From Candidatus Multivoradales bacterium (GTDB lineage Bacteria; Acidobacteriota; Thermoanaerobaculia; Multivoradales; JAHEKO01), in assembly GCA_965248055.1 (NCBI GenBank), contig CBDFIJ010000004.1:832001-896000 (forward strand): 64,000 nt of DNA, given 5' to 3'. The translations under genes and the position numbers were made by a program. The notes beneath the pieces are model-generated. The model did not search any database. It had not been told where the DNA came from and worked only from the letters and a program-made list of their open reading frames with translations. Below are positions 1 through 18,133 of the stretch, one piece after another. Within the stretch, counting starts at the first letter, position 1. Each line of letters opens with the position of its first letter.

Positions 1-11
1 TCCTATATTGA

Positions 12-2786
12 TCATCGACTAAACCGCCAAGTAATCCGGCCGACTTCTTCGCCCCGATAGAGCTGCCGAATGGCGAGGCTATGCCCAACTCGAAGGCCAT
101 CGGTGTTGCGTAGCTTGAAGTGGCAGCGAAAATCGATAGCAGCCGGCAGAGGCGTGCTGCCAAGAGAAAGATTCGGTTGTTTGCCCAGGTGAATAGTGGC
201 CAGGTCAGCCCCGCCGACAATTGCCTTTTGTAACCGCCCGCGTGAGAATTTATAAGCCAACGGCAAAGGTGCTTCGAACTCCACCTGGGTCTCCCAAGGC
301 AGCTTCTGGATCACTTCAAATTCAAACAAACGCGGGGCGTCCGGGGTGCCATTGATGTCGAAAGTGAGATCGACGGGTTCCTGATTGACGTCGCTTGGAA
401 CCTCAACCCCATAGACATTGCGCACGGAGACATTTCGTTGGCGACGCATCATGCGTAAGTAGCGACCCCAATGGAAGTTCAACTTATGACACGGAACCGG
501 TCCCTCCTCGCCACCCTTGTACTGCGCCACCGCTACCAAGCACTTGCGCTCGTTGATGTCAAAAGGGACCGAGTCGCTGAGCGAAAAGACATCTCCTTGC
601 GGCACATTGGAAATCGAAAGGCTAGACGCGTCGGGTGTTGAGGCAGTGGGAGGAAACTGGCGCCACCGATCCGGGGTCACTAAGGTTGACACCGGCGCCT
701 GGTAAATCTCGCACGACACCTCGGTCGCTTCTCGCAAACCACGGTTACAGACGCGGACTTGAATATTCTTCGTCCCCGGTGACTCGAGTCCAACCTCAAA
801 AACGTCCTGATTACTGAAAATACCGCGGCCAATAAAATCGTTCGACTCATCGCCATCTGCTCGCAGCAAGATGTCCGGCGAGCAGAATTTCCTCCTGCTC
901 GACTGGCCGTCGTCACCCAAATGATCTCTAAGATAGACCTGTGGCACGATACCCAACGATCGTTCTACAACTAAGCGCAGGTTGGGCATCACTCCGATCC
1001 AGCCACGCCTTCCTCTGCCTTGACGGGTTCCCGTTCGGGGCTCTGACAGCAGGGAACGCATCTGGGTTGGCGACAGTCTCTTCCACTTCTCCTCGCCGGT
1101 CGCGGGTGACGCGTTCTGAGCATAGAGGCTCTGTACCAAGGCGGCGGCGCCAGCAATCATCGGCGCAGCGCTGCTGGTCCCCGAAAAGGTATCGGTATAG
1201 GAACTGGTGTCTATTCCGTCGGAAAAATTTCCGTAACCGGCGGCCACCACACTGTCTCCCCAGCCGAAGCAATCCACCCGTCCACCGTAATTGGAATACC
1301 AGGAACGGTTGTGAGGCACCGCTGATCGAGCTGCTCCAACCAGGATCGCCCCCGAATCAACAAAATATGGGCTTCGTCGATTCAGCGAGCGACCATCTAC
1401 GGTTTCCAAGCGATCAAGGTTGAGCCAGCCATTACCGGCGGCTTCCACCACGATGATGCCGTGGGCGACCGCCAGGCGGATAGCGTCAAAAGTCAACGGG
1501 TTGACCTCTTCTGGTTGACCCGCACGTTGCACTTCGAGCAGCAATACGTCTCCCGGTTTCAGCACCGGAGTGTCTCCGGTGATCAACGCCGCGATCGCGT
1601 CCGCCACGCGTCCGCTGGAAGCTGAGGCGTCGCCGTCACCCTTCTTGTAGTGAGACGCCAGCGAAAGAGTGGCAACCCCGGAGGCAATTCCAATAACTCC
1701 GAGCTGATTATCGTGATTGCCAACCAATTGACTGGTGACGGCGGTGCCATGATCTCCCAGGTAAAGATCGGGCTCAAGGTGGCGATTATCGCCATGCTTA
1801 AGTAACGGATTGGGCAGGTCCTCATGACCCGGAATCCAACCCTGCTCAATGTCGGCGAGGCCGATTCTCACCGCGTTGGAGGCCAGATGAGCTCGGGCCC
1901 AACGCACCCCCAAACCTAATGGAGCTTCATCTAAGTACAACTGGAAATCGGACAGCTCTTCAGCAGAAGGCTCTTCGCCAGCTCCAGAGCCAGGTAGGTG
2001 GTCGGGGTCAGAGGCCTCGAACTCGCGGTACGCCAGATCCACGACACTCAAAGCGTTTAGCTGCTCAACTAGATGATCTGCGACGGCGTCACTCGAATGC
2101 GGTAACCCGTGTTCAGGAAGCACTTCATTACCGTTCGCTTCAATCGGCGGCAGGTTGCGTGCGTTGAGCCGCCAATAGGACCACAGACTGTGGCGAGGCG
2201 GAAAATTACTGCTAATCGCCTTGCGCTCCAGTTCATTGAGAGATCCCCCCAACTCCGAACCACAAGCCGCATCATCGAGATCGGCGCCCGGACCACCAGC
2301 TCGATCAGTCGTAATCGCTCGCCCAAAATCTGGCTGACCAAATCGTTCTAGAACGGTTTCCAGCTCGGCCAAAGCGAGCAAGGTTGCGCTTTCCGAGGTT
2401 GGAATCAGGGGTGAGAGACGGACGATGACATCGCCACTGTAGCGTTGCTCCAAAACTGGAATGCCTGTGTTCTCGGTTCCGATCGGTTTGGGAGGGCCTA
2501 GTTGCGCAATGCGGAGGGCCTGCGTGTGCCCCTGACAATGAGCGTCATCAAAATCGGGGTCATCAGGGGGGAGATCACGATCAGGGTCTGGCGGTCGTGG
2601 ATCGTCGGGCGGGAGATCACGCTCGGGATCTGGAGGACTTGGATCGTCAGGTGGGAGATCACGCTCAGGATCTGGAGACCTTGGATCGTCAGGTGGGAGA
2701 TCACGCTCAGGGTCTGGAGGACTTGGATCATCAGGTTCGATATTCCTGCCAAGAAGCCCGAACCTCGCGCCTTGCTGTTTACTCAT
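12..2786 (-). CDS. S8 (subtilisin-like) serine peptidase with N-terminal Asp/Pro tandem repeat and C-terminal beta-rich domain
   Basis: Catalytic motifs IGLADIEQG (Asp), GDHGTAV (His), AAGNG (oxyanion Asn), FSGTSSAAP (Ser). Start moved to ATG 2786 behind RBS AAGGAGGAG. No signal peptide. Confidence 0.9.
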   Translation of the reverse strand: MSKQQGARFGLLGRNIEPDDPSPPDPERDLPPDDPRSPDPERDLPPDDPSPPDPERDLPPDDPRPPDPDRDLPPDDPDFDDAHCQGHTQALRIAQLGPPKPIGTENTGIPVLEQRYSGDVIVRLSPLIPTSESATLLALAELETVLERFGQPDFGRAITTDRAGGPGADLDDAACGSELGGSLNELERKAISSNFPPRHSLWSYWRLNARNLPPIEANGNEVLPEHGLPHSSDAVADHLVEQLNALSVVDLAYREFEASDPDHLPGSGAGEEPSAEELSDFQLYLDEAPLGLGVRWARAHLASNAVRIGLADIEQGWIPGHEDLPNPLLKHGDNRHLEPDLYLGDHGTAVTSQLVGNHDNQLGVIGIASGVATLSLASHYKKGDGDASASSGRVADAIAALITGDTPVLKPGDVLLLEVQRAGQPEEVNPLTFDAIRLAVAHGIIVVEAAGNGWLNLDRLETVDGRSLNRRSPYFVDSGAILVGAARSAVPHNRSWYSNYGGRVDCFGWGDSVVAAGYGNFSDGIDTSSYTDTFSGTSSAAPMIAGAAALVQSLYAQNASPATGEEKWKRLSPTQMRSLLSEPRTGTRQGRGRRGWIGVMPNLRLVVERSLGIVPQVYLRDHLGDDGQSSRRKFCSPDILLRADGDESNDFIGRGIFSNQDVFEVGLESPGTKNIQVRVCNRGLREATEVSCEIYQAPVSTLVTPDRWRQFPPTASTPDASSLSISNVPQGDVFSLSDSVPFDINERKCLVAVAQYKGGEEGPVPCHKLNFHWGRYLRMMRRQRNVSVRNVYGVEVPSDVNQEPVDLTFDINGTPDAPRLFEFEVIQKLPWETQVEFEAPLPLAYKFSRGRLQKAIVGGADLATIHLGKQPNLSLGSTPLPAAIDFRCHFKLRNTDGLRVGHSLAIRQLYRGEEVGRITWRFSR
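2556..2735 (-). repeat. 42-bp coding tandem repeat, about 4.3 copies (PDDP[S/R][P/S]PDP[E/D]RDLP)
   Basis: Directly visible in DNA and translation. Confidence 0.95.
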
Positions 2787-2853
2787 GATTCTCCTCCTTC
2801 TAGGTTGATACTTGCTCCGACGTACCAATAGATCCCTAACGCAATCGGCAGGT

Positions 2854-5800
2854 TTACTCGCTGGCCGGAAACATTGCTAGATACTCACCTTGCAAGACCA
2901 AGCCGGCCCAGTAGTAGGGCGCCCGTTGCTCGCGCCACAAGGAGATCTGCGCCGCCCGTAGCGCCGCAGAAGGCGAAGAACCAACCACAAACAGCTCTCG
3001 ATAGAACCGCTCCATCAGCTCGGCCGTGCTCCGGTCTTCGACACTCCAGAGGCCTGCGACCACACGCTGGGCGCCTGCGTATGTCAATGCCCGGGTCATC
3101 CCCACCAAGCCTTCGCCTTTGACCTCTTTTCCCAACGCGGTGCGGCAGCCACTCAAGACAACCAGATCCGCCGACAGACGCAGATTGTAGAGTTCGTGAG
3201 CGCGCAGAAAACCATCCTGGTCTGCACCGCTACGGTCGACCAGGGAAAAGACGATGCCAGAGAGGCCAGGGCGGTTGGAGTCAAGGACCGCGTGGGTCGC
3301 TAGGTGGATGATTCGATAGTCGGCTAGCACACCATCCAAGACCAGTTTCTTGGTGGCCTCGAAATCGAATGCTTGAAAAGACGATCCTCTCGGCGCGATA
3401 GCCAAAATGGAGTTCGCCTCCCGACGCGAAAAAGGTAGCCGCTGGTATTCACCGGCACCGCTAACCTCGATCGGTCTGGTGCCTTGTGTCCGACTACGAG
3501 GGGCAGTTGCAGCTGAGACTCCATCCAGCCGTCGATCCGCCTGCGAAAAGACCGGATCAGCTATCACAGCGACGACTCCCTTAGGACGCGGCCGTCCTTC
3601 GGTCTCTTTGCGCTGGAGGGCGAGGGTCGACGCCGATGGTAGATAAGTTGTTTGGTTGGCCAGCAACAGAGGCCGGGCTGCCCAACACTGTCCGAGATCC
3701 CTCGGGTCGGCCAGGGCGCCAAACGGCAGATACTGGAGGGCGCCGTGGGCGACGATCACCAGTTGATTGTCTTTGAGGCGGTCGGCGATTGGCTGGACCA
3801 GGATCCGACTCAAGTCGCAGAGGGCATCCTGTACGGCTCGTCGAGCTTCCGGACGATGGCTGGTCGCCAGCAACCGATGGGTGCGCATTACCTTCCGTTC
3901 CAGTTCCTCCCTGCCGGGCAATTCGAAGCTGGAAAGAGAGTGCGGCGACACGAGAAAGAGGAAGCTGCGTTCAACGCCTAGCCAGTACTCGAGCAGGAGA
4001 GTCTCTTTGCCCAGGACCGATCCCCTTATTTCGTCAAGGGCGAGGGTCTGCGGTTGTGTTAGCGCGGCATAGTGGGGGCTTTTACGTCGTATCTTGGCTC
4101 GCAACTGGCCAAGCTCGTCGAGTAGCCGCCGTACTTCCCTTGTGGCCCCGGCGCGCTCTTCGTCACTCCGCCTTCGATCCTGATAGAGATTCAGGCGATA
4201 TCGCTCGGCGACATTGACCGCGTTCTGCAACTCCAGTTCGTGTTCGACCAAGCCGGGATCTACACCCGCGCGGACCTCCGCCCCAGACTCATCGAGCAGA
4301 TCCAACAGCCCACGCGCTCGAGCACGCTCGCTCGCCGCCAATGCTTTTGCATCGTGGCCAGCCGACGGCATCAGCCGGTGCAAATCCATCTGCAAGTCAA
4401 TGTAGAACTCAAAGTAGGGCTGCGCTCGGGCGAAGAAGGAGTGGCTCAGATCATCGCTAAAGCTCCTGGGCCGGACTGACTCCATGAGCTCAATAGCCGC
4501 CTCAACGGCCGTGACCGCCCCGGACAGCTCTCCGCGGCGCCTCTCGGACCCTGCCAATCCCAACAAACTCTCAGCTTCGCCAGTGAGATCCCCAACCTGC
4601 CGACAGAGCTTGAGTGACTGCGTGTACAACGAGAACGCTTCGTCGGGGTTGGTGAGGGCGCCTAAATTGCGCAGCAGGCGCGACTCCGCCACCGGCGACC
4701 AAGTGGCCCCTAAACGTAAGAGTTCGAGGGCTTTCCGGTACAAGTCCGCCGCCTCGCCCTGCTCGCCCAAAGCCTGTCGTAGCTCGCCTAGGCTGGTCAG
4801 GATCGCTACTTGCCCGCTGCTATGCCCGGTCTCGCGCCGTAACTCAAGCGCATCGTTGAAGTCCCGTTCCGCAGTTCCTAGATTGCCGAGTACGAGAAAC
4901 AGCCGGCCCCGCTGGTGGATCGAAGCTGCGCGGCCGTTGCTGTTGCCCAGTTTCGCCCAGGTTGCTTCCGCTTCGTTGAAGTGATCCAAGGCCGAATTGG
5001 TTTTCCCCATGGTCCTATAGAGCAGACCCATCTGGTGGAGGGTTCGTGCGCTGGCGGCGGGATTAGCACCGCTCTGCAACAGCCGCCGCGCTTCGCTGTA
5101 TTGTTCCAACGCGGCAGTAACTTGGTCGAGCGCTTGATACGTCTGAGCCAAGTTGACTAAAGTTGTTTCGCGCCAAGCACTTCGGTCTTCAGAAAGGAGT
5201 CCCAGCTGGCGCTGGAAAACTTCCAACGCTCCGCGCGCATCGCCAACCAGATAAAGAGACGTTCCCAATCCCTTGAGCGCGAGCCATTGCCCAGGAGTGT
5301 CACCCGCTTCCCGAAAGCATAGGTCACTTTCACGGTATTTTTCTATGGCTTCACGCCACCTGCCTAACCTCTTGGCGACGAAGCCAATGCGTTCCAGCGT
5401 CTCAGCCCGCCAAAAAACATCGTCCACTTCCCGCCATATTCCAAGCGCCCAGCGATAGCTTTCCTCGGCAGCATCGTAGTCACCTACTAGACTTAGTTCT
5501 TCGCCCCGCTCAACTGCCTTCGCCGCGTCAACCCGGGCCCGGTCTGAAGCCGTCGCTTTCCGCAAGTCGGCTACATTCACTTGGTAGATACCCTTACCTG
5601 GATTCTCGTTGAAGCTTCGCACTTCGATTTGATAAATGCCTTGCTGCACCACGAGTCCAAGCAGTGGCTCATACCCGTGACCTCCAATCGGACGGTCGAT
5701 ACTCCTCGCTACCGCCTCACCTCGTGGATCAAACAAAGTGGTGACCACGTCGATACCGCGCTGGTCAACGACCACCTCAATGAAGTGATCGGCCCTCAAG

Positions 5801-6015
5801 TCGAGAGCGTAGAAATGGACCTCCCCGGGAGCGATTTCGCGCTCGATCGGCTGACCCATCTCCAGAACTGAAACCAACGAGCCCTCCGGACTGTCGGAAC
5901 CGGACTCCGGGTCAGGATCTTCAACCGGCTGGCAGGACAGTGTGTAACAAGCTAGGAGGACGATTGCCGCTAGTGCATGCTTAGTTCCGCCAATAAATCT
6001 CTGTGGAATGATCAT
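2854..6015 (-). CDS. CHAT-domain (caspase-like) protease with PPC-like domain and TPR array, probably exported or lipid-anchored
   Basis: CHAT motifs IHLATHA (His), LVVLSGCRTALG (Cys), SLW-like GLWSVED, PYYWAG; TPR repeats; hydrophobic LAAIVLLAC..LSC near N-terminus. Start uncertain (ORF extends to 6147). Confidence 0.9.
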   Translation of the reverse strand: MIIPQRFIGGTKHALAAIVLLACYTLSCQPVEDPDPESGSDSPEGSLVSVLEMGQPIEREIAPGEVHFYALDLRADHFIEVVVDQRGIDVVTTLFDPRGEAVARSIDRPIGGHGYEPLLGLVVQQGIYQIEVRSFNENPGKGIYQVNVADLRKATASDRARVDAAKAVERGEELSLVGDYDAAEESYRWALGIWREVDDVFWRAETLERIGFVAKRLGRWREAIEKYRESDLCFREAGDTPGQWLALKGLGTSLYLVGDARGALEVFQRQLGLLSEDRSAWRETTLVNLAQTYQALDQVTAALEQYSEARRLLQSGANPAASARTLHQMGLLYRTMGKTNSALDHFNEAEATWAKLGNSNGRAASIHQRGRLFLVLGNLGTAERDFNDALELRRETGHSSGQVAILTSLGELRQALGEQGEAADLYRKALELLRLGATWSPVAESRLLRNLGALTNPDEAFSLYTQSLKLCRQVGDLTGEAESLLGLAGSERRRGELSGAVTAVEAAIELMESVRPRSFSDDLSHSFFARAQPYFEFYIDLQMDLHRLMPSAGHDAKALAASERARARGLLDLLDESGAEVRAGVDPGLVEHELELQNAVNVAERYRLNLYQDRRRSDEERAGATREVRRLLDELGQLRAKIRRKSPHYAALTQPQTLALDEIRGSVLGKETLLLEYWLGVERSFLFLVSPHSLSSFELPGREELERKVMRTHRLLATSHRPEARRAVQDALCDLSRILVQPIADRLKDNQLVIVAHGALQYLPFGALADPRDLGQCWAARPLLLANQTTYLPSASTLALQRKETEGRPRPKGVVAVIADPVFSQADRRLDGVSAATAPRSRTQGTRPIEVSGAGEYQRLPFSRREANSILAIAPRGSSFQAFDFEATKKLVLDGVLADYRIIHLATHAVLDSNRPGLSGIVFSLVDRSGADQDGFLRAHELYNLRLSADLVVLSGCRTALGKEVKGEGLVGMTRALTYAGAQRVVAGLWSVEDRSTAELMERFYRELFVVGSSPSAALRAAQISLWREQRAPYYWAGLVLQGEYLAMFPASE

Positions 6016-6453
6016 TTCCGTCCAGTTGTGCAATCGTCTTTCGCCTGCAGCCGCAGATCTAACTCTCTTGTTGCTCCTTCTCCCAACACTAAACCGAATT
6101 GTCAGCTCCTTGTCAACAGACCCGGCACCCATCCGTTTGCGAACCATATTGCGATGCGGTGCATTGCCGGAGACAGACTCAGGGCTGGTGAGAAGGTGGC
6201 TTCGCTTTTCGACCCCAACGATCCGAAATGGATCCGTCCCAAAGTCAACCTCCCACCCAATGATCCATAGAAGTAGGCATCAGCTGAAGAGTAGCCACTA
6301 ATTCATAGACAGAGGAGACAGCATGAAGTAAGAACTGATCTTAGAGCCGGCGAGGGGGACGAGCGATTTCTCGAACCCGACGACCGTTAGACGAAGTCGC
6401 ATCCAAGCGCCTATTTTGCAAGTTCCTAAGATGTCGCTCTCTTTTCTTGGGAA

Positions 6454-7233
6454 CTACCTATCAAGGATCTGCAGTGAGGTTTCGATAATGGTTTCTTTGC
6501 CGCCATCAACGGTTCCTTCGATCCGCACGCTGTAGTCCCCTGGTGGTAGTAGCTCTCGCGGCAGCCGCATTCTGAGTGTCGCTTCTTCGCTTAGTCCGAG
6601 GCCACTGGCACGCCACACTGCGCCTCTCTTTCTAGACGTCACCGTCGCGGAAAAATTGGAGAAAGTATCCGGTGTACTTGGGATCGCAATCAAAAGAACA
6701 AAGGGTTGATCGGCGGAAAGTTCAGCGGTGACCCCGGACGGTTCACTCCGGGTGACCTCATCCAGATAAATAATCGGCGGGTTGACCTGTGGTTGAGTCA
6801 GATCTGCCACCTGCTGCCGCAGATTCGAAGTCGTTTGTCGCAACTGGCTCACGGAAAACAACAAACCCACAGTCGCCACCAGCAACGAAGCCGCGATCGC
6901 CTCACGCCAGCCAAAGCTCCGCACCGGCACCGCAGGTTCGGAGGCAGTCAGCCTGGCTTGGAAATCGCGCCAAGCCGCCTCTAACATAAAATCAGCTAGC
7001 TCGCCGGATGCCTCATCCGGGAACACCAAACACTCTAGATCGAGCACCTTCTGGGCGCATTCTTTGCAGCCAGCCAAATGATCTTGCACCAAGCCGTCGG
7101 CTTCCGAGCTGAGTTCGCTCGCTAGGTATTCGACCAGAGTGTCAGCCTCTGGATGCTCTCCGGCTCGGCCGGTGGCGTCCTCTACCAGAAGGCGGCGAAA
7201 GGCTTCGGTGTCAGTGCTGTGATGAGTTGACAT
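6454..7233 (-). CDS. zf-HC2 membrane anti-sigma factor
   Basis: HLAGCKEC (HxxxCxxC), TM helix AIAASLLVATVGLLFSV, C-terminal Ig-like ..LLPPGDYSVRIEG; directly downstream of ECF sigma; RBS GAGGA before ATG 7233. Confidence 0.88.
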   Translation of the reverse strand: MSTHHSTDTEAFRRLLVEDATGRAGEHPEADTLVEYLASELSSEADGLVQDHLAGCKECAQKVLDLECLVFPDEASGELADFMLEAAWRDFQARLTASEPAVPVRSFGWREAIAASLLVATVGLLFSVSQLRQTTSNLRQQVADLTQPQVNPPIIYLDEVTRSEPSGVTAELSADQPFVLLIAIPSTPDTFSNFSATVTSRKRGAVWRASGLGLSEEATLRMRLPRELLPPGDYSVRIEGTVDGGKETIIETSLQILDR

Positions 7234-7247
7234 ACAGTTCCTCAAAT

Positions 7248-7901
7248 TCAGTCCGGCAGATCCACGGAGTACGGCCCAAGGCTCTCTTGGAGTCTAGCTT
7301 TCGCCTGCGATAGGTGTGCTTTTACCGTGCCTATCTTGAGTTTCATGACGGTCGCAATCTCTTGATAGCTAAGGTCGTGATAGATACGAAGCGTCAGACA
7401 CCGGCGCATTTGGTCCGGCAATTCTTGAATGGCATCTCGCATGGTCTGCTTTCGTTCGTCTCTCAGGACATCATCCAGTTGGTCGGCAGGTACTTGCGTC
7501 GCCTCGTAGGCAAATCCGAGTTCATCGTGTGGTACTTCCTGGCCAGTTCTTTTCGCCGTAGACCCGGTTCTCAATCTCTTCAAGTAAGTGGTCGTTGCGA
7601 TTTGATAGAGCCAAGATTCGAATCGATCCTCATTGCGGAGCCCCCTTAACCCCTTATAGATCCCAAGAAAGGTCTCTTGGGTTAGGTCCATCGCGTCGGT
7701 TGTATTAAACCCCTTGCGAGCAAAAAACCGCTGTAACGGCCGATAGTAGATCTCGAACAGAGCCCTAAATGGGTCGTCAGGGTTGTCGCCGGTGCGTAGT
7801 TGTCGTACCAGTGTTGTCGCGTGCTTCCTGCGTGCGGCGGTAGCAGCCCCAGCTCCCCCTGAATCCCTACTACTGCTTGAATCAGACTCCGTCCACTTCA
7901 C
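7248..7901 (-). CDS. ECF RNA polymerase sigma factor
   Basis: Region 2 DAMDLTQETF..FESWLYQIA and region 4 LPDQMRRCL..LSYQEIA..GTVKAHLSQA. Likely GTG start at 7901 behind GGAGAGGA. Confidence 0.93.
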   Translation of the reverse strand: MKWTESDSSSSRDSGGAGAATAARRKHATTLVRQLRTGDNPDDPFRALFEIYYRPLQRFFARKGFNTTDAMDLTQETFLGIYKGLRGLRNEDRFESWLYQIATTTYLKRLRTGSTAKRTGQEVPHDELGFAYEATQVPADQLDDVLRDERKQTMRDAIQELPDQMRRCLTLRIYHDLSYQEIATVMKLKIGTVKAHLSQAKARLQESLGPYSVDLPD

Positions 7902-7949
7902 CGGATTCCTCTCCCAACACTCGTGTTGCGTGTGCCTCTGTCCGCAGCG

Positions 7950-7958
7950 GTTATACCA
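7950..7958 (-). promoter_or_regulatory. Putative extended -10 promoter (TGgTATAAC) for the ECF operon
   Basis: Minus-strand TGTGGTATAAC about 50 bp upstream of the ECF start. Confidence 0.45.
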
Positions 7959-8156
7959 CACAGGCTCCAAACTCGCAGTTGTGCGGAAAACACTCTGGAC
8001 ATCACCAAATGACGACTTCGATACCAGATTCAATTCGGCCGAACGTCATCACTTGGCAACCTCGCTCAACCCCAATCGCGCTGAAGGCCTCAATAACTAG
8101 GCTATCCGGGCAGTATTGGCTGCCGGTATACTTCGGTCGCTCAGGAACCCTCTCCC

Positions 8157-10415
8157 ATGAATAGCACTACCCGATTGGTTCTCTGCTCCCTCAGTCTGGT
8201 GTTAGTGCTGTTTCCGCTCACCGCGGCCCAGCCTGGGCAGCCCCCGACCCTGAAAGCCGACGAACCGGCTTATTTCTTGATGTCTTTGAGTCTTGCTGAA
8301 GACGGAGATTTGGTGGCCGACTCCGACGATATCCGCCGTGCGTTTGACCATTACCCATATCTTCCGGTCGCCAACCTAATCCTTATGTCTCCCGACCGCT
8401 GGGAAACCACATACTTTGGTAAGCCATATATCTATTCTTTTTTTGCCACTCCGTTCGCTGCTCTATTTGGCAGTAACGGTTTCAAGTCTTTCAACATGTT
8501 GATGCTGGTCGCCATGGTGTGGATGGGCACATCGTATCTACGAAAGTACAACTCGGACGGGGTTGCAGCGCTCTACTCGACTCTATTTTTCGTTCTCAGC
8601 CCGGCGTTCGCCTACGTGTTTTGGATCCACCCCGAGATCTTCAACATGTTCTCGATCGCCGCGTGCTTGTACTTGGCATTTCACCAACCGGAGACCTCGG
8701 AAACACCAAACCGCTTAAGCCTTCCAAGGCGCCTGTGGGGAACTGTCACCGGCGCCAGTGCACGACCGTGGTGGTCCGGGGCAGCCCTAGCCCTGGCGAC
8801 CTACAACAAGCCGATGCTAGGACTGATGGGGGTCCCGGCTCTGTTCTACGTGTTTCGCAAGCGCGGCTGGAAGTCCGCGACCGGTTGGATTGCCGGGGCG
8901 GCTCTAGCCATGACTTTGATCGCTGGCATCTCGGTGGCCTACACCGGCAAGCCGAGCGCCTACCTAGGGGTTGCTCGCGGTGGTATCAACATTCTCAAAC
9001 CGGAAGACTACGAGACCTCGATCCGCAACGTACGCCTGGCCACCGCCGCCCACAGAGACGAAAAAGCCCCCAATTCCTGGCACTGGATGTTTCGAGTGCC
9101 CGATGTCAAAGCCAACAAATTTCTCACCGATGTCCGCTACTTTCTGTTTGGAAGGCACACCGGCCTAGTGCCCTACATGCCTTTTGCCGTGCTCTCGGTC
9201 CTGTTTTTCCTATTTCAAGGGCGTGGATCGCGCGCCCGTTGGTTGACGCTAGGGTCCTTGGCCCTGGTAGCCCTAGTTTTTCTACTATGGATACCGTTCA
9301 ATTGGCACGGTGGTGGCGGCTTCGTCGGTAATCGCTACTACGTCAACGTCTACCCGGCATTCTTGTTCTTAGTGACCGCGATACGCCCTCTGTCTCTTTC
9401 CCTCGTTGGTACCGGCTTCGCCACCCTGCTTCTGGGTTCGATTTTGTTCAACCCTTGGGGTCTCCCCGTTCCCCACCCAACCCTGCAGTCCCATACCCGT
9501 GGCGGCCTATTTCGTTATTTTCCGCTCGAACTTTCGCTCCACAGCCGAATTTCCGGCTATTCCGTATTTGGCAGTAATGAAGTGGGCATTATCGGTCGCA
9601 AGGACGTCTTCAAACAGGTTGACGAACTGGAAGGGGTATTTTGGACCCGAGGCGGAGCGACCGCCGAAGTTTGGGTTTTCGCCAATGACCCATTGGGAAA
9701 ACTGTATTTTGACGTACAGAGCTGGGCCCCCACCAACCGCATCATCCTCAAACTGGGGCGTTCTAAGGAAGTACTCGACTTTGTCGACATGGAGCGCAAT
9801 TCGGAGCACGTACGCACCGTAGGTCTGACGCCATCACGACCGGTGGTCGTCACCAGTGCCAACGGCAAGAAAAAACACTATTACTACAAACTCCTGGTGA
9901 CTTCGGATACCGGAATTCACGAAGGCGGCAACATGGTCTTGGCGAAAGTCGACCCGTTGTTCTATGTCGGTGCATCGCTGACATACCTGGGCGCAGAAGA
10001 ACCAGGACCACGCGACCAAGACTTCAGGGTCAGTTGGCAAAAATGCGAGATCCCGAAGCGCCTCGCCACCGGGTCTCGCAGCCGAATCGACATTCGTGCC
10101 ACCAACGTTGGCAAGCGCACTTGGCAAGCTCTGGGCGAGACCCCAGTGCGTCTTACCTACCATTGGCTTGATGGTGATGGGAATCCTGTCCGCATGCCGG
10201 ACCAACCGCGACCCAAACTGCGGCGCAATGTGCCCCCTGGCGGTGTCGTGCTGAAAACGCTGACCGTCTACGCTCCGGAGAAACCCGGACGTCATACTTT
10301 GGTATTTGAGGGTGCTCGTAGACACCTCGGATGGTTTCCACGCCACGAAGGAGGTTCCTGTGCGAGCGATGTGGTGGTCTACCGAGATCCCGGCGGCAAG
10401 TCAGCTACTCAATAG
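8157..10415 (+). CDS. Polytopic membrane protein, GT-C/PMT-like glycosyltransferase, with C-terminal Ig-like domain
   Basis: Many TM helices, KADEPAY loop motif, WHGGGGFVGNRY, C-terminal VRLTYHWLD..APEKPGRHTLVF Ig-like domain. Confidence 0.65.
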   Translation: MNSTTRLVLCSLSLVLVLFPLTAAQPGQPPTLKADEPAYFLMSLSLAEDGDLVADSDDIRRAFDHYPYLPVANLILMSPDRWETTYFGKPYIYSFFATPFAALFGSNGFKSFNMLMLVAMVWMGTSYLRKYNSDGVAALYSTLFFVLSPAFAYVFWIHPEIFNMFSIAACLYLAFHQPETSETPNRLSLPRRLWGTVTGASARPWWSGAALALATYNKPMLGLMGVPALFYVFRKRGWKSATGWIAGAALAMTLIAGISVAYTGKPSAYLGVARGGINILKPEDYETSIRNVRLATAAHRDEKAPNSWHWMFRVPDVKANKFLTDVRYFLFGRHTGLVPYMPFAVLSVLFFLFQGRGSRARWLTLGSLALVALVFLLWIPFNWHGGGGFVGNRYYVNVYPAFLFLVTAIRPLSLSLVGTGFATLLLGSILFNPWGLPVPHPTLQSHTRGGLFRYFPLELSLHSRISGYSVFGSNEVGIIGRKDVFKQVDELEGVFWTRGGATAEVWVFANDPLGKLYFDVQSWAPTNRIILKLGRSKEVLDFVDMERNSEHVRTVGLTPSRPVVVTSANGKKKHYYYKLLVTSDTGIHEGGNMVLAKVDPLFYVGASLTYLGAEEPGPRDQDFRVSWQKCEIPKRLATGSRSRIDIRATNVGKRTWQALGETPVRLTYHWLDGDGNPVRMPDQPRPKLRRNVPPGGVVLKTLTVYAPEKPGRHTLVFEGARRHLGWFPRHEGGSCASDVVVYRDPGGKSATQ

Positions 10416-10421
10416 ATCAAT

Positions 10422-12017
10422 ATGAACTCCTCGCTCCGGCTTGACTACGTTTCGCCACTACCTCCGGTGCGCTCCGGAATTGCCGACTACAGCCTAGATT
10501 TGCTGCCAGAGCTAGCCTCACTCTGCGATCTACGGGTGATTTGCCTCGACAACCAATCATTGCCTCAGCAACTGCAGGAAACGTGCGATTCCGCTCCGGC
10601 TGCCGATTTGGCGACCGGCGACCGCACGCCGCTCTACCATATGGGCAACAACCACCACCACGTGCAGATTTGGCATTTGGCTCACCAGATTCCGGGGATT
10701 CTCACCCTGCACGATTTGGTTCTGCATCATCTCTTGGTCGAAGTGACCTTGGGCGAGAACGACTTTGAAAGCTACGCAGAGCGATTGCAAAAAGACCATG
10801 GGTGGCTCGGCGAGTCGGTGGCCCACGCTCGGCAATGGCACGAACTGGGAAACTCTGCGATGTTTGGCGTTTCTGGGCACCGCACTTTGCTACGACGCCA
10901 ACGTGGCGTGTTGGTACACAGTGAATGGGCAGCGCGGACCCTGCGAGAAGAAGATGACGAGTTAAGCGTAAGAGTCGTGCCGATGGGGATTCCACTACCG
11001 GATCTGGTAGAGCCAAAAAACGCGGCGGCTTGGAGGGAAGAAAAGGGCATCCCTCCCGCGGTACCCCTCTTGGGCACATTTGGTTTTCAGACTCCTATCA
11101 AGCGTACCGATCGCGCAATCGCCGCGCTCAGTCATCCGCGTTTACAAGATGCGCATCTAGCGATCGGCGGAGAGATCTCAGGCAAATTGGATCTCAAGCG
11201 CCAAGCTCGAGGGGCTGGGGTGCTTGATCGGGTGCATTTTCTCGGCTTCCTGGACTTTGACGAGTTTCAAACTGCCATCGCCGCCTGCGATCTGTGTCTC
11301 AATTTGCGCTATCCGAGCGCCGGAGAAACCTCGGCCTCGTTACTTCGAGAGCTGGCCCTGGGGCGCCCGGTTGTGGTTTCCGACTACGCCCAGTTCGCCG
11401 ATTTCCCGGACACGGTAGCTCTCAAGGTGCCGCTCGGTGACGGCGAGGAGGGGCACCTTGGCTCAGCCATCGGCGAAGTGTTGCGTGATACCGACCGGAT
11501 AGACGAAATGGCAGCAGCTGCGCGCAGATATATCGAAAGAGAACATGACCCCAAGCGCGCGGCAGAGTCGGCAGTGAGCGCCTGCCTCGAACTTGTCGAC
11601 CTAGAGCCGCCAGGGGACAAACCTCCGCCGAAAATCGTTCCCACGAGTTTTCTCTGGCGCAAGCTACACGGCGAGATCCAAGTCCGAGGGGTGGACGAAG
11701 CGTGGCCGATCGGCGAACAACGGAAACTGACGATTCACTTGGCCAACAACAGCCTAGCGCGCTGGTTGGCGGCCGAACATGACGTTGGTGGAGTGATGGT
11801 TGGAGTGCACTGGCGCCAGGAACCCAAGGATGCCCCGAACGAACAGCAGTGGCTTCCTCTTCCCCACCCTCTCGATCCAGGGGAATCCATCGAACTCCAA
11901 CTGGAGATCCGACGACCACCTGAAAACTCAAGATTCTTGGTGGTTGAACCACACCTTCGTGAGATCTGCGGCTTCAATGCGGTCGAGGGACCAACCTGGG
12001 AGATGGAGCTATCGTGA
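10422..12017 (+). CDS. Glycosyltransferase family 4 (GT-B) with C-terminal Ig-like domain
   Basis: SPLPPVRSGIADYS, YHMGNN, NLRYPSAGETSASLLR..GRPVVVSD motifs. Confidence 0.9.
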   Translation: MNSSLRLDYVSPLPPVRSGIADYSLDLLPELASLCDLRVICLDNQSLPQQLQETCDSAPAADLATGDRTPLYHMGNNHHHVQIWHLAHQIPGILTLHDLVLHHLLVEVTLGENDFESYAERLQKDHGWLGESVAHARQWHELGNSAMFGVSGHRTLLRRQRGVLVHSEWAARTLREEDDELSVRVVPMGIPLPDLVEPKNAAAWREEKGIPPAVPLLGTFGFQTPIKRTDRAIAALSHPRLQDAHLAIGGEISGKLDLKRQARGAGVLDRVHFLGFLDFDEFQTAIAACDLCLNLRYPSAGETSASLLRELALGRPVVVSDYAQFADFPDTVALKVPLGDGEEGHLGSAIGEVLRDTDRIDEMAAAARRYIEREHDPKRAAESAVSACLELVDLEPPGDKPPPKIVPTSFLWRKLHGEIQVRGVDEAWPIGEQRKLTIHLANNSLARWLAAEHDVGGVMVGVHWRQEPKDAPNEQQWLPLPHPLDPGESIELQLEIRRPPENSRFLVVEPHLREICGFNAVEGPTWEMELS

Positions 12018-13420
12018 GCAATGAATTTCCTCGGGTCGATGACGCGGATCTCCCCAAGTGGCGGGAGGTCTGGGACGGCAATCAGCCCCTGCCCTTACCG
12101 CGTCGGCCGGGCCTGACCGGAAAGCTAGTTGCGCTTTTTCGTCGCTTGCTTCGCCCTCTAGTGACCATGGTCCAAGCGGACCTATGGGAACGACAGCGAA
12201 TTTACAATCAATTGATTCAACACCACCTAGAAGCGCGGTATGACCTGGCTGAATCAGTGGCCAAAGCTCAGGACAGCCTATGGGCAGCTCTTGAGCAGCA
12301 GCAAACCAGCCTCGAAGAGGTTAATGACAAGCGTGAGTCCGACACCAAGGCGGTGTACCAAGAACTCCTGAGCTACTCCGATGCGCAGCAGAAACGGATC
12401 CACCGCGTCGAGGACATTCAAAACCAGGGGCTCGATCATATTCGCGAACACCATGACGCTGCCTTCGCGATCATCGATCACAAATTGGATAAGTATCGTC
12501 GCAGGGCTGAAGAGCACCATGAAGCCACACTCGGGCACCACGACGCGATCTACTCGTTGATGGATCACAAACTGGAGCGCTATCGCAGTGCCGATAGGCG
12601 CTTGCAATCCGAGCTAGCTAATCTTCTCAAGGTTGCTGAGGCCGCGTCTTCGCAGTCTGGAACTCGCGCCAACCTCGTTCGCACGCTCGACGAACAGGCC
12701 TACCTGGAACTGGAGCGTCGCCACCGAGGTACCGAACAAGAGATCGCCGAACGGGTCGAGCCTTACCTCCCGTTCCTGGCCAAGGCTCACAAACAACACG
12801 CAGAAGCTGAGGAAGGCGCAGGCATCATTCTGGACCTCGGGTGTGGTCGGGGTGAAGCGCTGGAAGTCTTTCAACAGCGTGACTGGACCGGTCTGGGCGT
12901 CGATTCCAACGCTCAGATGATCGAACAGTGCAAAAAAAAAGGACTTGATGCAGTCGTTGGTGATCTATTCGAGGTCCTCGTTAGCACTCCAGCTGGTTCT
13001 CTCACTGGGGTCGTTTCCTTTCACGTTATTGAGCATCTTCCAAACGATGCGCTGCAGCAACTCATCAACCTCAGTTGGAAAGCGCTCAAACCAGGCGGAG
13101 TGCTGGTGGTGGAAACCCCGAGCCCTCTTTCTGTCATCGTCGGAGCTCGCAATTTCTGGCTTGATCCCACCCACCAGCGACCGGTGCATCCCCAAAGTCT
13201 CAAACTCGCCTTTGAACTGGCCGGGTTTGGAGACGTTGAACGCATCGATCGCCAACCCTTTGCTGACGAGCAGCGCCTGCCACAGGTCGAGACCACAGAA
13301 CTTTCCGGAGAGCTCCTCGATATGGCCCATCAGGTCAACTTGCTCCGTGACCAACTCGACAACTTGCTCTACGGATTCCAAGACTTTGGCATGGTCGGGT
13401 GTAAACCCCGTCTGGAATGA
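12014..13420 (+). CDS. Class I SAM-dependent methyltransferase with N-terminal coiled coil (glycan capping type)
   Basis: ILDLGCGRGE, SFHVIEHL, LKPGGVLVVETP, FWLDPTH; GTGA overlap with GT4. Confidence 0.88.
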   Translation: MSNEFPRVDDADLPKWREVWDGNQPLPLPRRPGLTGKLVALFRRLLRPLVTMVQADLWERQRIYNQLIQHHLEARYDLAESVAKAQDSLWAALEQQQTSLEEVNDKRESDTKAVYQELLSYSDAQQKRIHRVEDIQNQGLDHIREHHDAAFAIIDHKLDKYRRRAEEHHEATLGHHDAIYSLMDHKLERYRSADRRLQSELANLLKVAEAASSQSGTRANLVRTLDEQAYLELERRHRGTEQEIAERVEPYLPFLAKAHKQHAEAEEGAGIILDLGCGRGEALEVFQQRDWTGLGVDSNAQMIEQCKKKGLDAVVGDLFEVLVSTPAGSLTGVVSFHVIEHLPNDALQQLINLSWKALKPGGVLVVETPSPLSVIVGARNFWLDPTHQRPVHPQSLKLAFELAGFGDVERIDRQPFADEQRLPQVETTELSGELLDMAHQVNLLRDQLDNLLYGFQDFGMVGCKPRLE

Positions 13421-14795: not shown

Positions 14796-15965
14796 TTATA
14801 AGGGCTCAGTTCCTTCACCTAGAAGCCTCAGATACTCCTTGTACACGTAAATTCGACGCCAGTTTCGTCCACTAACCTCCTCGACGATGTCGAGGCCCAC
14901 TAGGCGGTCAATAGCGCGCTTCACCGTCGGTTGAGATAGCCCAGTAGTCGCAGAAACACTACCAACTGTCGATACAGGCCTTGCGCAATAACTATCCAAG
15001 ACAGCTAGTGTTGAACCTTGCGCCTGTCCAGCCACGGATCTGGTGCAACCCCGGTCGTGTTCAAACATCGTGGTTAACTCGCGTGCAGTCACTACTGCCT
15101 GTTCGGCGGTTTCGGCAACTCCATCCGCAAAGAACCTCAGCCAACCTTCCCAGTCACCCGACTCGCGCGTGAAGCTAAGTAGCTCGTAGTAGCGCGATCG
15201 GTTCTTCTTTAAATAGAGGCTTAGATAGAGCAACGGCTCGTGAAGTACGCCTTCGGCACTCAGTATCAACGCAATCAGCAGACGCCCGACCCGGCCGTTG
15301 CCATCCAGAAACGGGTGGATCGTCTCGAATTGCAGATGAGCAAGCGCCGCTTTGATGAGGGCTGAAGTTCTCTCCGGCTGATCGTGAATGAAGGATTCAA
15401 GATCAGCCATACAATTGCCAATCCGATCTGCAGGCGGTGGCACAAACACCGCATTCCCCGGCCTAGACCCGCCAATCCAGTTCTGAGATTTACGAAACTC
15501 CCCCGGCTGCTGGTGACTGCCCCTCCCGCTGGCTAGAAGACGCTCATGCATCTCGCAAATCAAGCGATTGGAGATTGGGAAGCCGCCACGGATTCGCTCC
15601 AAACCGTGGTCCAGTGCGGCGACGTAGTTGGATACCTCGGTGACATCATCGATTGGTACCCCTGGAGCCTCATCCATCTCGAACAGGAGCAGCTGCGAAA
15701 AGGAACTCTGGGTCCCCTCAATCTGAGAAGACAGCACCGCCTCCTTGCGAACATAGCTGTAGATAAAAAGGTGCGGCTCGGGGAGGATTGTCGAAACAGC
15801 GTCCAATCGTCCCAGCGCAGTAAGAGCATGATCGAGCGCATCGCGCAACTCGCTGCTGAACTCAAGCGGTGGACGAGGCGGCAACGGGCTCGGTACAAAC
15901 GCCTCGAACGGCTCGGGTCCCACGTGCGTCACCGTAACGTAGGCGCCCTGACTAGTACGGCGCAT
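14796..15965 (-). CDS. Fic family protein (Fic N-terminal domain, Fic, C-terminal wHTH)
   Basis: EAVLSSQIEG, canonical HPFLDGNGRVGR, C-terminal HTH ..LSQPTVKRAIDRLVGLDIVEE. Confidence 0.93.
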   Translation of the reverse strand: MRRTSQGAYVTVTHVGPEPFEAFVPSPLPPRPPLEFSSELRDALDHALTALGRLDAVSTILPEPHLFIYSYVRKEAVLSSQIEGTQSSFSQLLLFEMDEAPGVPIDDVTEVSNYVAALDHGLERIRGGFPISNRLICEMHERLLASGRGSHQQPGEFRKSQNWIGGSRPGNAVFVPPPADRIGNCMADLESFIHDQPERTSALIKAALAHLQFETIHPFLDGNGRVGRLLIALILSAEGVLHEPLLYLSLYLKKNRSRYYELLSFTRESGDWEGWLRFFADGVAETAEQAVVTARELTTMFEHDRGCTRSVAGQAQGSTLAVLDSYCARPVSTVGSVSATTGLSQPTVKRAIDRLVGLDIVEEVSGRNWRRIYVYKEYLRLLGEGTEPL

Positions 15966-16046
15966 AATAAAGAGAAATTAACACATGCGGCCTTTTTCGT
16001 TAGAAGCTCGAATCACTTTTAACACCCCTCCGCGCCACCACCACCT

Positions 16047-16086
16047 CGTCATCCCGGCGCGCGGGGGTCTAGGGGGGTCGGGATCT
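16047..16086 (+). repeat. REP-like palindromic element, family A (CGTCATCCCGGCG...GGGATCT)
   Basis: Related copies at 17230 (+) and 34693, 36580, 36711, 37780 (-). Confidence 0.75.
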
Positions 16087-16166
16087 TTAGCAATCGCGCG
16101 ACTCGGCTATGCCATCCCTACAGCTTTCTGCCGCTTCTCCCAACTCTCCCACTTCCGACCCAGAAG

Positions 16167-16219
16167 GTCGTCCTGAGCGAGCCCGAGCAGCGCCGAGGTG
16201 GAGCCGAAGGATCTCAACG
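16167..16219 (+). repeat. REP-like element, family B (GTCGTCCTGAGCG...CGAAGGATCTCAACG)
   Basis: Inverted counterpart at 34571-34616. Confidence 0.75.
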
Positions 16220-16234
16220 GGCCGTTAGGGCTTC

Positions 16235-16516
16235 CTACGCTAGGCCCGCCGCACGCTGACGCTTCGCCCATGTCGCTTTCGCCTTCGCCCTCTCCTCTTC
16301 GCGATCCTTGCTCGGAGCAGTGGTCACCAAGCCATCAATCAATCGCCTCGACGCCACCGCCACCTCTTCCACCGCCCGCTCGAACACCGATTCATTCACC
16401 TGCGACGGCGCCCGCATACCGGACAGCTTGCGTACAAACTGCAACGCAGCATCGCTCAGCTCTTCGTCAGTCGCTGGTGGATCAAAGTTAAACAGGGGTT
16501 TGATATTTCTACACAT
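16235..16516 (-). CDS. DUF2277 family protein
   Basis: MCRNIKPLFNFDPPATDEE..AALQFVRKLSG signature. Confidence 0.9.
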   Translation of the reverse strand: MCRNIKPLFNFDPPATDEELSDAALQFVRKLSGMRAPSQVNESVFERAVEEVAVASRRLIDGLVTTAPSKDREEERAKAKATWAKRQRAAGLA

Positions 16517-16542
16517 AATTCCTTTCCGCGTTTCCGTCGAAC

Positions 16543-17013: not shown

Positions 17014-17229
17014 CTCCTTTTCAGCTTCCGGATCGATTCTACGAAAAACTAATCGAACTCCACCCCTACTACCAACCCTGATGAACAAGAGGACCCCATT
17101 CGACCTATCCCGGTGGGGCTCACTCTTTCCTTGAGCCTGCCCCGCGTGCGACGGCCCTTGGGGGGCGGGAGCCATCCCGGCGGCGCCCCTTCTTCCTTCC
17201 TGTGATTTCTGGCGGGCTCTTCCCACTCT

Positions 17230-17269
17230 CGTCATCCCGGCGTGCGGGGGTCTTGGGGGGCCGGGATCT
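17230..17269 (+). repeat. REP-like element, family A
   Basis: CGTCATCCCGGCGTGCGGGGGTCTTGGGGGGCCGGGATCT, close to the 16047 copy. Confidence 0.75.
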
Positions 17270-17298
17270 ATCCCAATCCCTTCCACCTAGACCAATAA

Positions 17299-18030: not shown

Positions 18031-18133
18031 GATCGCGGTCACCCGGACCTCTATCCTTAAGCATTTGGCATTCTTCTCCAAGGAAAAACTCTCAGGGATC
18101 GTTTCCAAATGGAACTGGAACGATGACTCTTAA

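Follow-up and report, generated by a model that had tools for sequence, protein, structure and literature searches.

A putative split DdvA-like proteolytic switch of an ECF sigma factor, a membrane anti-sigma factor and a TPR-CHAT protease, next to a repeat-bearing S8 protease

At the edge of the window (the whole stretch of 64,000 nucleotides analysed here), four co-oriented open reading frames lie on the minus strand between positions 12 and 7901. An earlier note on this DNA had described them as co-oriented genes with catalytic residues, which the ORF positions, Pfam matches and motifs confirm. The genes and their features are:

7248..7901, minus strand: ECF-type sigma factor, about 217 aa (Pfam Sigma70_r2 and r4_2, NCBIfam)
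6454..7233, minus strand: single-pass anti-sigma factor, 259 aa, with zinc finger, TM helix (about aa 113-131), coiled linker and Ig-like ectodomain (aa 152-259)
6739..6765, minus strand: predicted CHAT cleavage loop of the anti-sigma, aa 157-165, with Arg162 (codon 6748-6750) followed by Ser (conservation, low pLDDT)
2854..6015, minus strand: PPC-like/TPR/CHAT cysteine protease, 1053 aa from the ATG at 6015 (Pfam, motifs, Foldseek)
3292-3294 and 3145-3147, minus strand: CHAT dyad, His908 and Cys957 (conservation)
3418-3420 and 3034-3036, minus strand: candidate S1 residues of CHAT, Glu866 and Asp994 (conservation and covariation)
12..2786, minus strand: S8 subtilisin-family protease, 924 aa, without signal peptide (Pfam, triad motifs)
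2556..2735, minus strand: four 14-residue (42-nt) units bracketed by five Asp-Asp-Pro sites, S8 aa 18-77, a candidate repeated peptide precursor

The anti-sigma stop (6454) and the CHAT start codon are separated by a gap of 438 nt, and the S8 gene starts 67 nt past the CHAT stop, with a strong RBS ahead. An RpoE-like -35 element is found at 6420-6426, with a -10-like partner 26 nt off (read by eye). The promoter and terminator scan performed no better than shuffled sequences and found no sigma-specific promoter. The only long repeat within positions 1-8300 is the coding 42-nt repeat of the S8 gene, and no Rfam family was matched. A glycosyltransferase cluster adjoins the locus, an island with type I restriction-modification, Fic and GIY-YIG genes lies 7-23 kb from it, and the window carries acidobacterial VWFA markers (NCBIfam).

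We observe the anatomy of the four genes directly. The sigma factor is matched by Sigma70_r2 (E 1.9e-11) and r4_2 (E 3.8e-15) in Pfam and by the sigma70-ECF superfamily model of NCBIfam (93.5 bits, cut-off 42.9), which alone passes its cut-off among the NCBIfam matches listed. Its open frame reaches 8033, and the GTG at 7901 was chosen as the start from RBS-like purines. In the anti-sigma, the zf-HC2 match is weak (E 2.8e-4; 21.4 bits, under the cut-off of 22.2), and the residues His52, Cys56 and Cys59 are kept in 97-99% of 157 relatives. The protein has a single hydrophobic stretch, and its all-beta C-terminal domain resembles Ig-like and beta-sandwich folds (best Z 10.2, rmsd 2.7, 106 residues aligned). 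Conserved His and Cys residues, hydropathy and fold match thus agree with the earlier description of a zinc finger, one TM helix and an outer Ig-like domain. The anti-sigma family comprises 4319 representatives at E<=0.001 and 1530 at E<=1e-10, and the nearest Atlas clusters are for the most part from Acidobacteriota. No match was found when the anti-sigma was compared to plasmid sequences. Homology of the ectodomain to DUF928 was considered and not detected; the two share just a similar Arg-Gly motif, seen by eye.

The TPR-CHAT protein matches TPR_12 (E 1.2e-36) and CHAT (E 1.1e-63). Its hydrophobic N-terminus ends in Leu-Ser-Cys28, and a hydrophobic N-terminus is also present in 99 of 120 CHAT matches. 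Signal peptides and topology were judged from hydropathy windows and motifs, and on this basis the protein is probably exported and lipid-anchored. The earlier assumption that CHAT and the anti-sigma ectodomain share one compartment is consistent with these N-termini. The catalytic dyad is conserved across the CHAT matches (His908 in 120/120, Cys957 in 119/120). The hydrophobic, Cys-containing N-terminus, the TPRs and the His/Cys dyad of the earlier note are therefore borne out; the match of its PPC-like domain (E 0.0034) does not reach the cut-off. With the structure model (pLDDT 86.7), Foldseek places DdvA on top (E 6.6e-16), followed by separase and Csx29, and the closest likeness of the TPR part is the peptide-binding TPR of LGN/Pins. 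Searching the sequences of solved structures with a three-sequence CHAT profile retrieved no protease.

The S8 protease matches Peptidase_S8 (E 8.1e-18; 65.2 bits, cut-off 21.8) and has the triad motifs with Asp312, His346 and Ser538; its C-terminal ~300 aa have no Pfam match. Its N-terminus is not hydrophobic, in agreement with the missing signal peptide of the earlier note. Named relatives come mostly from Thermoanaerobaculia. An identity as cyanobactin PatA/PatG protease was rejected (TIGR03895, 16 bits, cut-off 421).

Next to the gene anatomy, we directly observe that the core of sigma, anti-sigma and CHAT recurs, in Granulicella and in eight of nine hand-picked Bacteroidota plasmid loci. 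A plasmid of Granulicella tundricola encodes an exported CHAT, a sigma factor and an anti-sigma that is homologous to the present one (E 1.4e-5) and whose Arg falls at the corresponding position. The eight Bacteroidota loci combine sigma and TM anti-sigma with an ectodomain that is TPR, not Ig-like, and that has the same loop. Furthermore, one anti-sigma match and one CHAT match come from the same source and from contigs of identical length (0.007 expected). Among 21 plasmid CHAT loci, 12 have no annotated sigma nearby. The S8 gene, in contrast to the three-gene core, is outside what is conserved: one S8 occurs in nine other sigma/anti-sigma/CHAT loci, and it is unrelated to the present family. 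Contigs of equal length link S8 and CHAT matches indirectly in two cases (0.16 expected), both with array-bearing S8s. A scan of a genome collection with the single CHAT returned three generic loci (two cyanobacterial, one weak planctomycete TPR) and no synteny; thus, four-gene synteny across Acidobacteriota was not directly observed. Of the four-gene co-occurrence expected earlier, the three-gene part stands and the S8 part is weak.

The predicted cleavage loop, which the earlier note does not include, lies directly outside the membrane in a variable and indel-rich segment whose pLDDT falls below 50 at aa 159-164. Within it, Arg162 is 97% conserved among 157 aligned anti-sigmas, a rate that equals that of the zinc ligands. 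An Arg occurs within a 9-residue segment in 155 of 156 anti-sigmas compared to 90 expected, where the segment was chosen around the Arg of the query once this had been noticed and the sequences are related. In 149/156 anti-sigmas the loop has Arg plus a small or polar residue. From this pattern, we infer that CHAT would cut the anti-sigma at Arg162.

On the protease side, none of the 120 close CHAT matches, cyanobacterial ones included, deviates at Glu866 or Asp994, and both residues are also conserved in the CHATs of loci without sigma; they are thus general CHAT features. When comparing ten CHAT/anti-sigma pairs, we directly observe that the loop residue and the pocket covary: a loop Arg accompanies Glu866 and Asp994 in 8/8 pairs, and a loop Met (Met-Ser) accompanies Leu/Val at 866 and Glu/Asn at 994 in 2/2 (Fisher p 0.022, a value that depends on two exceptions among hand-picked loci). 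For locus L023, the Arg loop was forecast from the CHAT sequence ahead of any look at its anti-sigma. Just 3% of bootstrap trees unite the two Met-type CHATs in a clade, and the AU test does not reject a single origin (p-AU 0.21). Reading by eye contributed to the assignment of the loop residue: the alignment places the Met of L024, and likewise the Arg of both L025 and L026, one or two columns away. At the 866 column of L013, MAFFT first placed another Glu, and the residue is Leu when the protein is added to the 120-sequence alignment. Asp994 was also considered as the counterpart of the separase S1 aspartate, Asp1082 (PMC4626109), and this was rejected because the latter lies four positions further on. 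By motif counting its equivalent here is Ala998, and separase therefore gives no prediction of Arg specificity.

The locus looks most like DdvA/DdvS of Myxococcus xanthus, as if DdvA had been divided between two proteins, a small anti-sigma in the membrane and an exported TPR-CHAT. Both systems have an ECF sigma, a zinc-finger single-pass anti-sigma and a TPR-CHAT with His-Cys dyad that is extracytoplasmic (here as suggested by hydropathy), and both have a peptidase gene downstream. For DdvA, site-1 cleavage by CHAT near the membrane was proposed and RseP cleavage of a truncated protein was demonstrated, whereas no CHAT activity was observed (PMC11506125). That study calls anti-sigma cleavage driven by CHAT unprecedented and left it untried because the activating signal of DdvA is not known. 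In contrast to DdvA, the TPR-CHAT is here a separate ORF with its own hydrophobic N-terminus and PPC-like domain, the anti-sigma has its own Ig-like ectodomain, no CBASS or CRISPR genes were seen among the large ORFs scanned, and a repeat-bearing S8 takes the place of the downstream C25. The best 150 of the 4319 relatives of the anti-sigma all measure 168-341 aa, and none of them is fused to CHAT.

The earlier note took the locus for a CRISPR-independent version of type III-E CRISPR CASP. The likeness stands in so far as a TPR-CHAT protease of the same fold acts there on a separate sigma inhibitor; as a precedent, DdvA/DdvS, the top fold match, fits better. Csx29 is cytoplasmic and gated by Cas7-11 and target RNA, and Csx30 is no zinc-finger/TM anti-sigma (PMC10028731), whereas the signal peptide-like N-terminus of CHAT and the TM anti-sigma argue against a cytoplasmic location here. 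Craspases cut after Met or Leu. Within the window, Cas7-11, Csx30, Csx31 and a CRISPR array are absent from the locus, where the neighbours form the glycosyltransferase cluster. In Actinobacteria, the ECF54 sigma also adjoins a subtilase and a CHAT-TPR protein, and proteolytic regulation has been proposed; according to the accessible parts of the sources (PMC7826278 supplement, PMC8999054), however, ECF54 is 100% actinobacterial and has no recognised anti-sigma, a carboxypeptidase-regulatory-like gene occupies position +1, where we find the zinc-finger/TM anti-sigma, and repeats are not mentioned. The order of a site-1 ectodomain cut, a site-2 intramembrane cut and sigma release is that of DegS-RseA-RseP, but the predicted site-1 enzyme is here a caspase-fold cysteine protease encoded beside its own anti-sigma.

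Our main reading, with a probability of roughly 0.7, is that the locus is a split DdvA-like switch of regulated proteolysis in which the exported CHAT cuts the membrane anti-sigma at Arg162. We infer each catalytic and regulatory step of this switch. At rest, as known for such families, the zinc-finger domain of the anti-sigma would hold the ECF sigma at the inner membrane, while the exported and probably lipid-anchored TPR-CHAT would be kept inactive by its own TPR/PPC part, by analogy to Csx29 and DdvA. A protein or peptide signal would activate CHAT, which may then act as site-1 protease and cut after Arg162 by means of an acidic pocket with Glu866 and Asp994 among its residues, as conservation and covariation suggest. 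Once the ectodomain is gone, RseP-type and cytoplasmic proteases would release sigma, where the RseP step is known for DdvA only. The S8 protease would be locus-specific cargo, probably co-transcribed with CHAT. The earlier claim that CHAT cleaves the anti-sigma ectodomain is thus favoured in so far as the predicted site of the cut changes together with the pocket of the protease.

It is improbable that CHAT is instead a co-regulated protein or scaffold and that Arg162 serves docking or structure or is cut by another protease. Such a role would agree with DdvA, whose dyad mutants have no phenotype at rest and where phage Mx4 triggered no autoproteolysis (PMC11506125), and with the many CHATs without sigma neighbour. 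It fits poorly with the almost invariant dyad, with an Arg in a low-confidence, indel-rich loop that survives a change of the ectodomain fold, and with the joint loss of loop Arg and acidic pocket residues. Similarly, we consider it improbable that the physiological purpose is an early warning against phages like that of the DdvS regulon. The DdvA precedent and the restriction-modification/Fic/GIY-YIG island point in this direction, but PADLOC returned only a generic TPR match on the window, the large ORFs scanned in the window, at whose edge the locus sits, include no CRISPR or CBASS genes, no Rfam family was found, and the nine related loci adjoin lipoproteins, proteases and transporters, not defence genes.

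Two further readings concern the S8 protease and its repeat array, a feature absent from the earlier note. Comparable arrays are present in 58 of 71 S8 homologues of at least 870 aa and in 0/40 of 770-869 aa, with a period of 12 in 38/58 and Asp-Pro or Asn-Pro at both ends in 48/58. A bracketed unit is found in 64/71 long compared to 1/40 short homologues, and 48 of 49 repeat cores are distinct. In a quick tree that left out nine proteins below 770 aa, arrays occur in several deep lineages, and 38/40 short forms are one clade. An array of variable cores with constant boundary motifs resembles a peptide precursor fused to a protease. Repeated-core precursors such as fungal alpha-factor with Kex2, cyanobactin PatE with PatA/PatG, and plant BURP-fused peptides also combine variable cores, constant boundaries and a subtilisin-family protease; in contrast, the candidate cores here are part of the S8 polypeptide and lack an export signal. 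We thus consider a self-encoded peptide signal, added to the split switch, in which S8 frees Asp-Pro-bracketed 10-14-mers that the TPR/PPC part of CHAT binds, which triggers cleavage. Besides the arrays, the likeness of the TPR to LGN/Pins and the two indirect CHAT links of array-bearing S8s agree with such a signal, as do two repeat-less S8 relatives on plasmids, neither of which adjoins a CHAT or sigma gene. However, a hydrophobic N-terminus is present in only 4/111 S8s, and without an export signal the peptides begin in the wrong compartment. An array of n units with n+1 boundaries also arises by slippage between two Asp-Pro codon pairs, spacers rich in Pro and Asp are common, and subtilisins seldom cleave adjacent to Pro. 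Furthermore, the ORFs of 27 fetched loci contain no Asp-Pro array, and just 2 of 57 other array-bearing S8s are tied to a CHAT, indirectly. An Arg site ahead of the arrays was dismissed as too weak (36/56, 25.6 expected), and an Atlas search with the S8 N-terminus gave no usable match. Overall, the peptide signal, which would make a quorum-sensing or lysis-alarm loop, is doubtful. Still more doubtful is a widespread and as yet undescribed one-locus peptide signalling system of Acidobacteriota, in which repeats released by S8 act on the TPR-caspase lipoprotein, the cognate anti-sigma is cut and sigma feeds back on the locus. Such a system would have polymorphic Asp-Pro-bracketed peptides and a coded cut residue, Arg or, in variants, Met, and its CHAT and Arg-loop logic would also serve other outputs, e.g. 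cyanobacterial DUF928/CHASE2 loci. It is possible, on tentative grounds, that the freed sigma instead induces S8 as a degradative or defensive effector, with the repeats serving just as spacer or latency element. The S8 gene closely follows CHAT on the same strand, and proteases are found repeatedly at comparable loci: the ddvS operon has a C25-type peptidase, L008 an M4-like peptidase and L012 an S8, while ECF54 is accompanied by a subtilase with CHAT-TPR and ECF33 by a subtilase. The earlier claim that sigma drives S8 gained no support from the promoter scan, and the conserved Asp-Pro boundaries with hypervariable cores, which such an effector leaves unexplained, suggest another role for S8.

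Searches of the open-access literature turned up no account of the split system, of the Arg loop or of the repeats. In comparison to the fused DdvA, the split form names a substrate, a predicted scissile residue (Arg162) and two candidate pocket residues, and the natural Met-type pairs are ready material for a specificity swap. If the S8 repeats are indeed the ligand, the locus would also represent a novel type of peptide signalling that brings its own activating signal. As the anti-sigma family is large and the core recurs in Bacteroidota, the split switch may be a major uncharacterised signalling class, which may sit in abundant environmental bacteria and may explain what many exported TPR-CHAT proteins do.

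The four co-oriented genes proposed in the earlier note are present: four minus-strand ORFs fill positions 12-7901 and give the expected domain matches. Gene starts were picked by RBS-like purines, and the anti-sigma, TPR-CHAT and S8 proteins are found in the protein collection at the same chosen lengths.

Features of the locus
7950-7958, minus: extended -10-like element (TG-n-TATAAC), seen by eye ~50 nt 5' of the sigma start, absent from the promoter-scan list
7248-7901, minus: sigma, ~217 aa, Sigma70 r2/r4_2
6454-7233, minus: anti-sigma, 259 aa, zf-HC2 match just below cut-off
6387-6426, minus: RpoE-like -35 (GGAACTT) and -10-like (CGTCTAA), seen by eye in the anti-sigma/CHAT gap
2854-6015, minus: TPR-CHAT protease, 1053 aa, TPR and CHAT, PPC-like match below cut-off
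12-2786, minus: S8 protease, 924 aa, Peptidase_S8
2556-2735, minus: S8 N-terminal repeat array, four units of 14 residues each, bounded by five Asp-Asp-Pro sites

The gaps are 14 nt (sigma/anti-sigma), 438 nt (anti-sigma/CHAT) and 67 nt (CHAT/S8). The 26 nt between the two elements at 6387-6426 exceed the spacing of a normal ECF promoter. Divergent from sigma, positions 8157-13420 (plus) hold a membrane glycosyltransferase-like gene, a GT4 glycosyltransferase and a methyltransferase, possibly surface-glycan genes that share their upstream region with sigma. A defence-like island (14796-30564, minus) contains type I restriction-modification genes (HsdR 20346-23753, HsdS 25149-26321, HsdM 28115-29611, minus), Fic proteins (14796-15965 and 23750-24874, minus; a third at 18213-19628, plus), a YgjP-like metallopeptidase, DUF4062-ATPase-HTH and GIY-YIG/DUF4357. 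The window also has the following features.

35495-36796: photosynthetic-reaction-centre-type cytochrome c domain with TPR
38130-40979: class II ribonucleotide reductase
46050-48032 and 62575-63681: two acidobacterial VWA proteins (TIGR03436, above cut-off), which together with the S8 relatives below make an Acidobacteriota host probable

A genome scan was uninformative on recurrence, and we used two indirect routes instead. Among 119 x 118 S8-CHAT combinations, two pairs share contig size and source (0.16 expected; a third size-matched pair was excluded as its sources differ), as does one among 7 x 118 anti-sigma-CHAT combinations (0.007 expected) and none between the anti-sigma and S8 match lists. 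In 21 CHAT loci hand-picked from >200 plasmid records, sigma and a membrane anti-sigma adjoin CHAT in nine, namely Granulicella tundricola, whose anti-sigma fits the family profile (E 1.4e-5) with Arg in register, and 8/9 Bacteroidota. S8 is near just one of these nine (L012, Chondrinema), and that protein has a signal peptide, is repeat-free and is distantly related. Thus, of the proposed four-gene co-occurrence, the conserved core is three genes, sigma, anti-sigma and CHAT, without S8.

Proteases other than CHAT lie close to the core on Chondrinema plasmids (L008 8808-9926 and L012 10231-13080): an M4-like metallopeptidase without signal peptide in L008, a putative metallopeptidase lipoprotein and the secreted S8 of L012. 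A single Chondrinema strain carries five CHAT/sigma loci of this type. On Aureibacter plasmids, lipoproteins with a variable acidic tail and terminal Pro are directly upstream of the core (L025 411-1100, L026 1804-2529); for the Bacteroidota form of the system they are candidates for a peptide ligand.

No sigma is annotated in the remaining 12 plasmid loci; one of these records lacks annotation, and a search there with the window sigma gave no match. In six of the 12 (Calothrix with DUF928, Gemmatirosa, Variovorax, Pseudosulfitobacter, Deinococcus, Sphingobium), Arg then Gly or Ala, a short motif found by eye, occurs near the folded-domain start of an apparently exported CHAT neighbour; no homology was seen. 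At L007 9346-11534 (Calothrix plasmid) and L017 2991-5204, CHAT adjoins CHASE2 and DUF928 or a similar exported protein. The motif precedes the folded domain of this exported protein, and these loci may follow the anti-sigma substrate logic with a different output. Our open-access search found no literature linking DUF928 to CHAT.

The intact CHAT dyad was confirmed, with His908 in 120/120 and Cys957 in 119/120 listed matches (120 of 4765). Since 99 of these 120 start with a hydrophobic N-terminus, 24 of them also with a lipobox-like motif (crude hydropathy test), the family is probably exported, in line with the proposed envelope location. Cys28, where the hydrophobic N-terminus of our CHAT ends, is probably lipidated. 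Three aligned Bacteroidota relatives have a hydrophobic C-terminal tail (by eye) that may be a membrane anchor. The CHAT structure model (pLDDT 86.7) matches DdvA, a Myxococcus xanthus anti-sigma fused to TPR-CHAT, best in Foldseek, followed by separase and Csx29; TM-scores are low (0.2-0.4) because the domain arrangement differs. The TPR part most resembles LGN/Pins.

The anti-sigma profile search gave 4319 representatives at E<=0.001, of which 1530 remain at 1e-10. Protein length ranges over 168-341 aa in the best 150 of the 4319, so none of these is a CHAT fusion. The ectodomain is a beta-sandwich. Across 157 aligned anti-sigmas (eight from one search, 149 more from the profile search), Arg162, just outside the membrane, is 97% conserved, on par with the zinc ligands, in an indel-rich, low-confidence loop; the next residue is mostly Ser or Gly. 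A column-independent count finds Arg within a 9-residue window in 155/156 (composition predicts 90), and Arg accompanied by a residue that is small or polar in 149/156; this window was placed after Arg was noticed, and the sequences share kinship.

We compared 10 sigma/anti-sigma/CHAT pairs, including our own. In eight anti-sigmas the loop that follows the TM helix contains Arg, and all eight partner CHATs have Glu866 and Asp994, candidate S1 pocket residues. The other two (Chondrinema L013, Emticicia L024) show Met-Ser there and no Arg; in the CHATs paired with them, residue 866 is Leu or Val and residue 994 is Glu or Asn (Fisher p 0.022, n=10, partly by eye). The exceptions cluster in only 3% of bootstrap trees, but a single origin is not rejected (p-AU 0.21). 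The loop Arg of L023 was predicted before its sequence was read, and the prediction held. This covariation, our best evidence albeit from few pairs, suggests that the loop residue is the P1 of the adjoining CHAT. Glu866 lies at what we take to be the position of the Arg-binding Asp of paracaspases and gingipain. An acidic residue of that kind is reported in helix alpha1 in PMC4626109, and the second separase S1 residue given there falls on Ala998 of our CHAT.

We favour, at a probability of roughly 0.68, a switch in which a signal would activate the exported TPR-CHAT, which would cleave the anti-sigma on the C-terminal side of Arg162. Sigma would next be freed by proteolysis of the RseP type and in the cytoplasm. 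The later steps are taken over from DdvA, where RseP degrades the protein once TPR-CHAT is removed (PMC11506125).

The role of S8 is a separate question. Its named relatives are, among the matches listed, mostly Thermoanaerobaculia, and a signal peptide, absent from our S8, is rare (hydrophobic N-terminus in 4/111). Among 120 listed of 184 homologues (nine below 770 aa excluded), an N-terminal tandem array occurs in 58/71 proteins of at least 870 aa versus 0/40 of 770-869 aa; under a permissive pattern, 64/71 versus 1/40 have a bracketed unit. Asp-Pro or Asn-Pro stands at both ends of 48/58 arrays. Units are near-identical inside one protein and differ among proteins, with 48 distinct cores among 49 twelve-mers. 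In a quick tree, arrays are spread over several lineages, and 38 short forms are one clade. Among homologues P0002-P0120, the long ones also tend to have at least three Cys in the first 140 aa, in a patch after the array (56/71 versus 5/40 short), and a beta-strand-like leader (51/71 versus 0/40), possibly an export or metal-binding signal.

In repeated-core peptide precursors, a unit that is bounded and hypervariable has typically been amplified repeatedly and independently. The S8 arrays look alike in this respect, which speaks for S8 as the source of the activating signal via repeat peptides; however, the rarity of export signals, the absence of such arrays from 27 other loci and the fact that slippage at Asp-Pro codons yields the same repeat phase make this unlikely. 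That S8 is a regulated output of sigma, as the earlier note had it, is a tentative possibility, but the promoter scan gave no evidence for sigma-driven S8 expression. Unrelated cargo or other roles take up the rest.

The favoured switch would work like DdvA/DdvS, but its protease is not fused to the anti-sigma and it is thus not a member of that system. With type III-E CRISPR (CASP) it shares the logic of a protease cutting a sigma inhibitor (PMC10028731), whereas our system shows no Cas genes among the ORFs scanned and is probably extracytoplasmic. Of the suggested CRISPR-independent Csx29-like version, the common logic and the missing Cas genes stand, but the predicted working resembles DdvA/DdvS. 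By itself the set of genes is not novel, because an actinobacterial ECF54 neighbourhood of sigma, CHAT-TPR and subtilase, with no anti-sigma, is on record (PMC7826278, PMC8999054). Our searches of the open-access literature turned up nothing on the split system, on the Arg loop and its covariation with CHAT, or on the S8 repeats; the DdvA homologue table may mention split forms. We conclude that the locus is real and probably encodes a new, split form of a DdvA-like switch, with a known kind of logic. It yields a precise, testable cleavage prediction, and the unexplained peptide repeats of S8 could make the locus a new signalling system.
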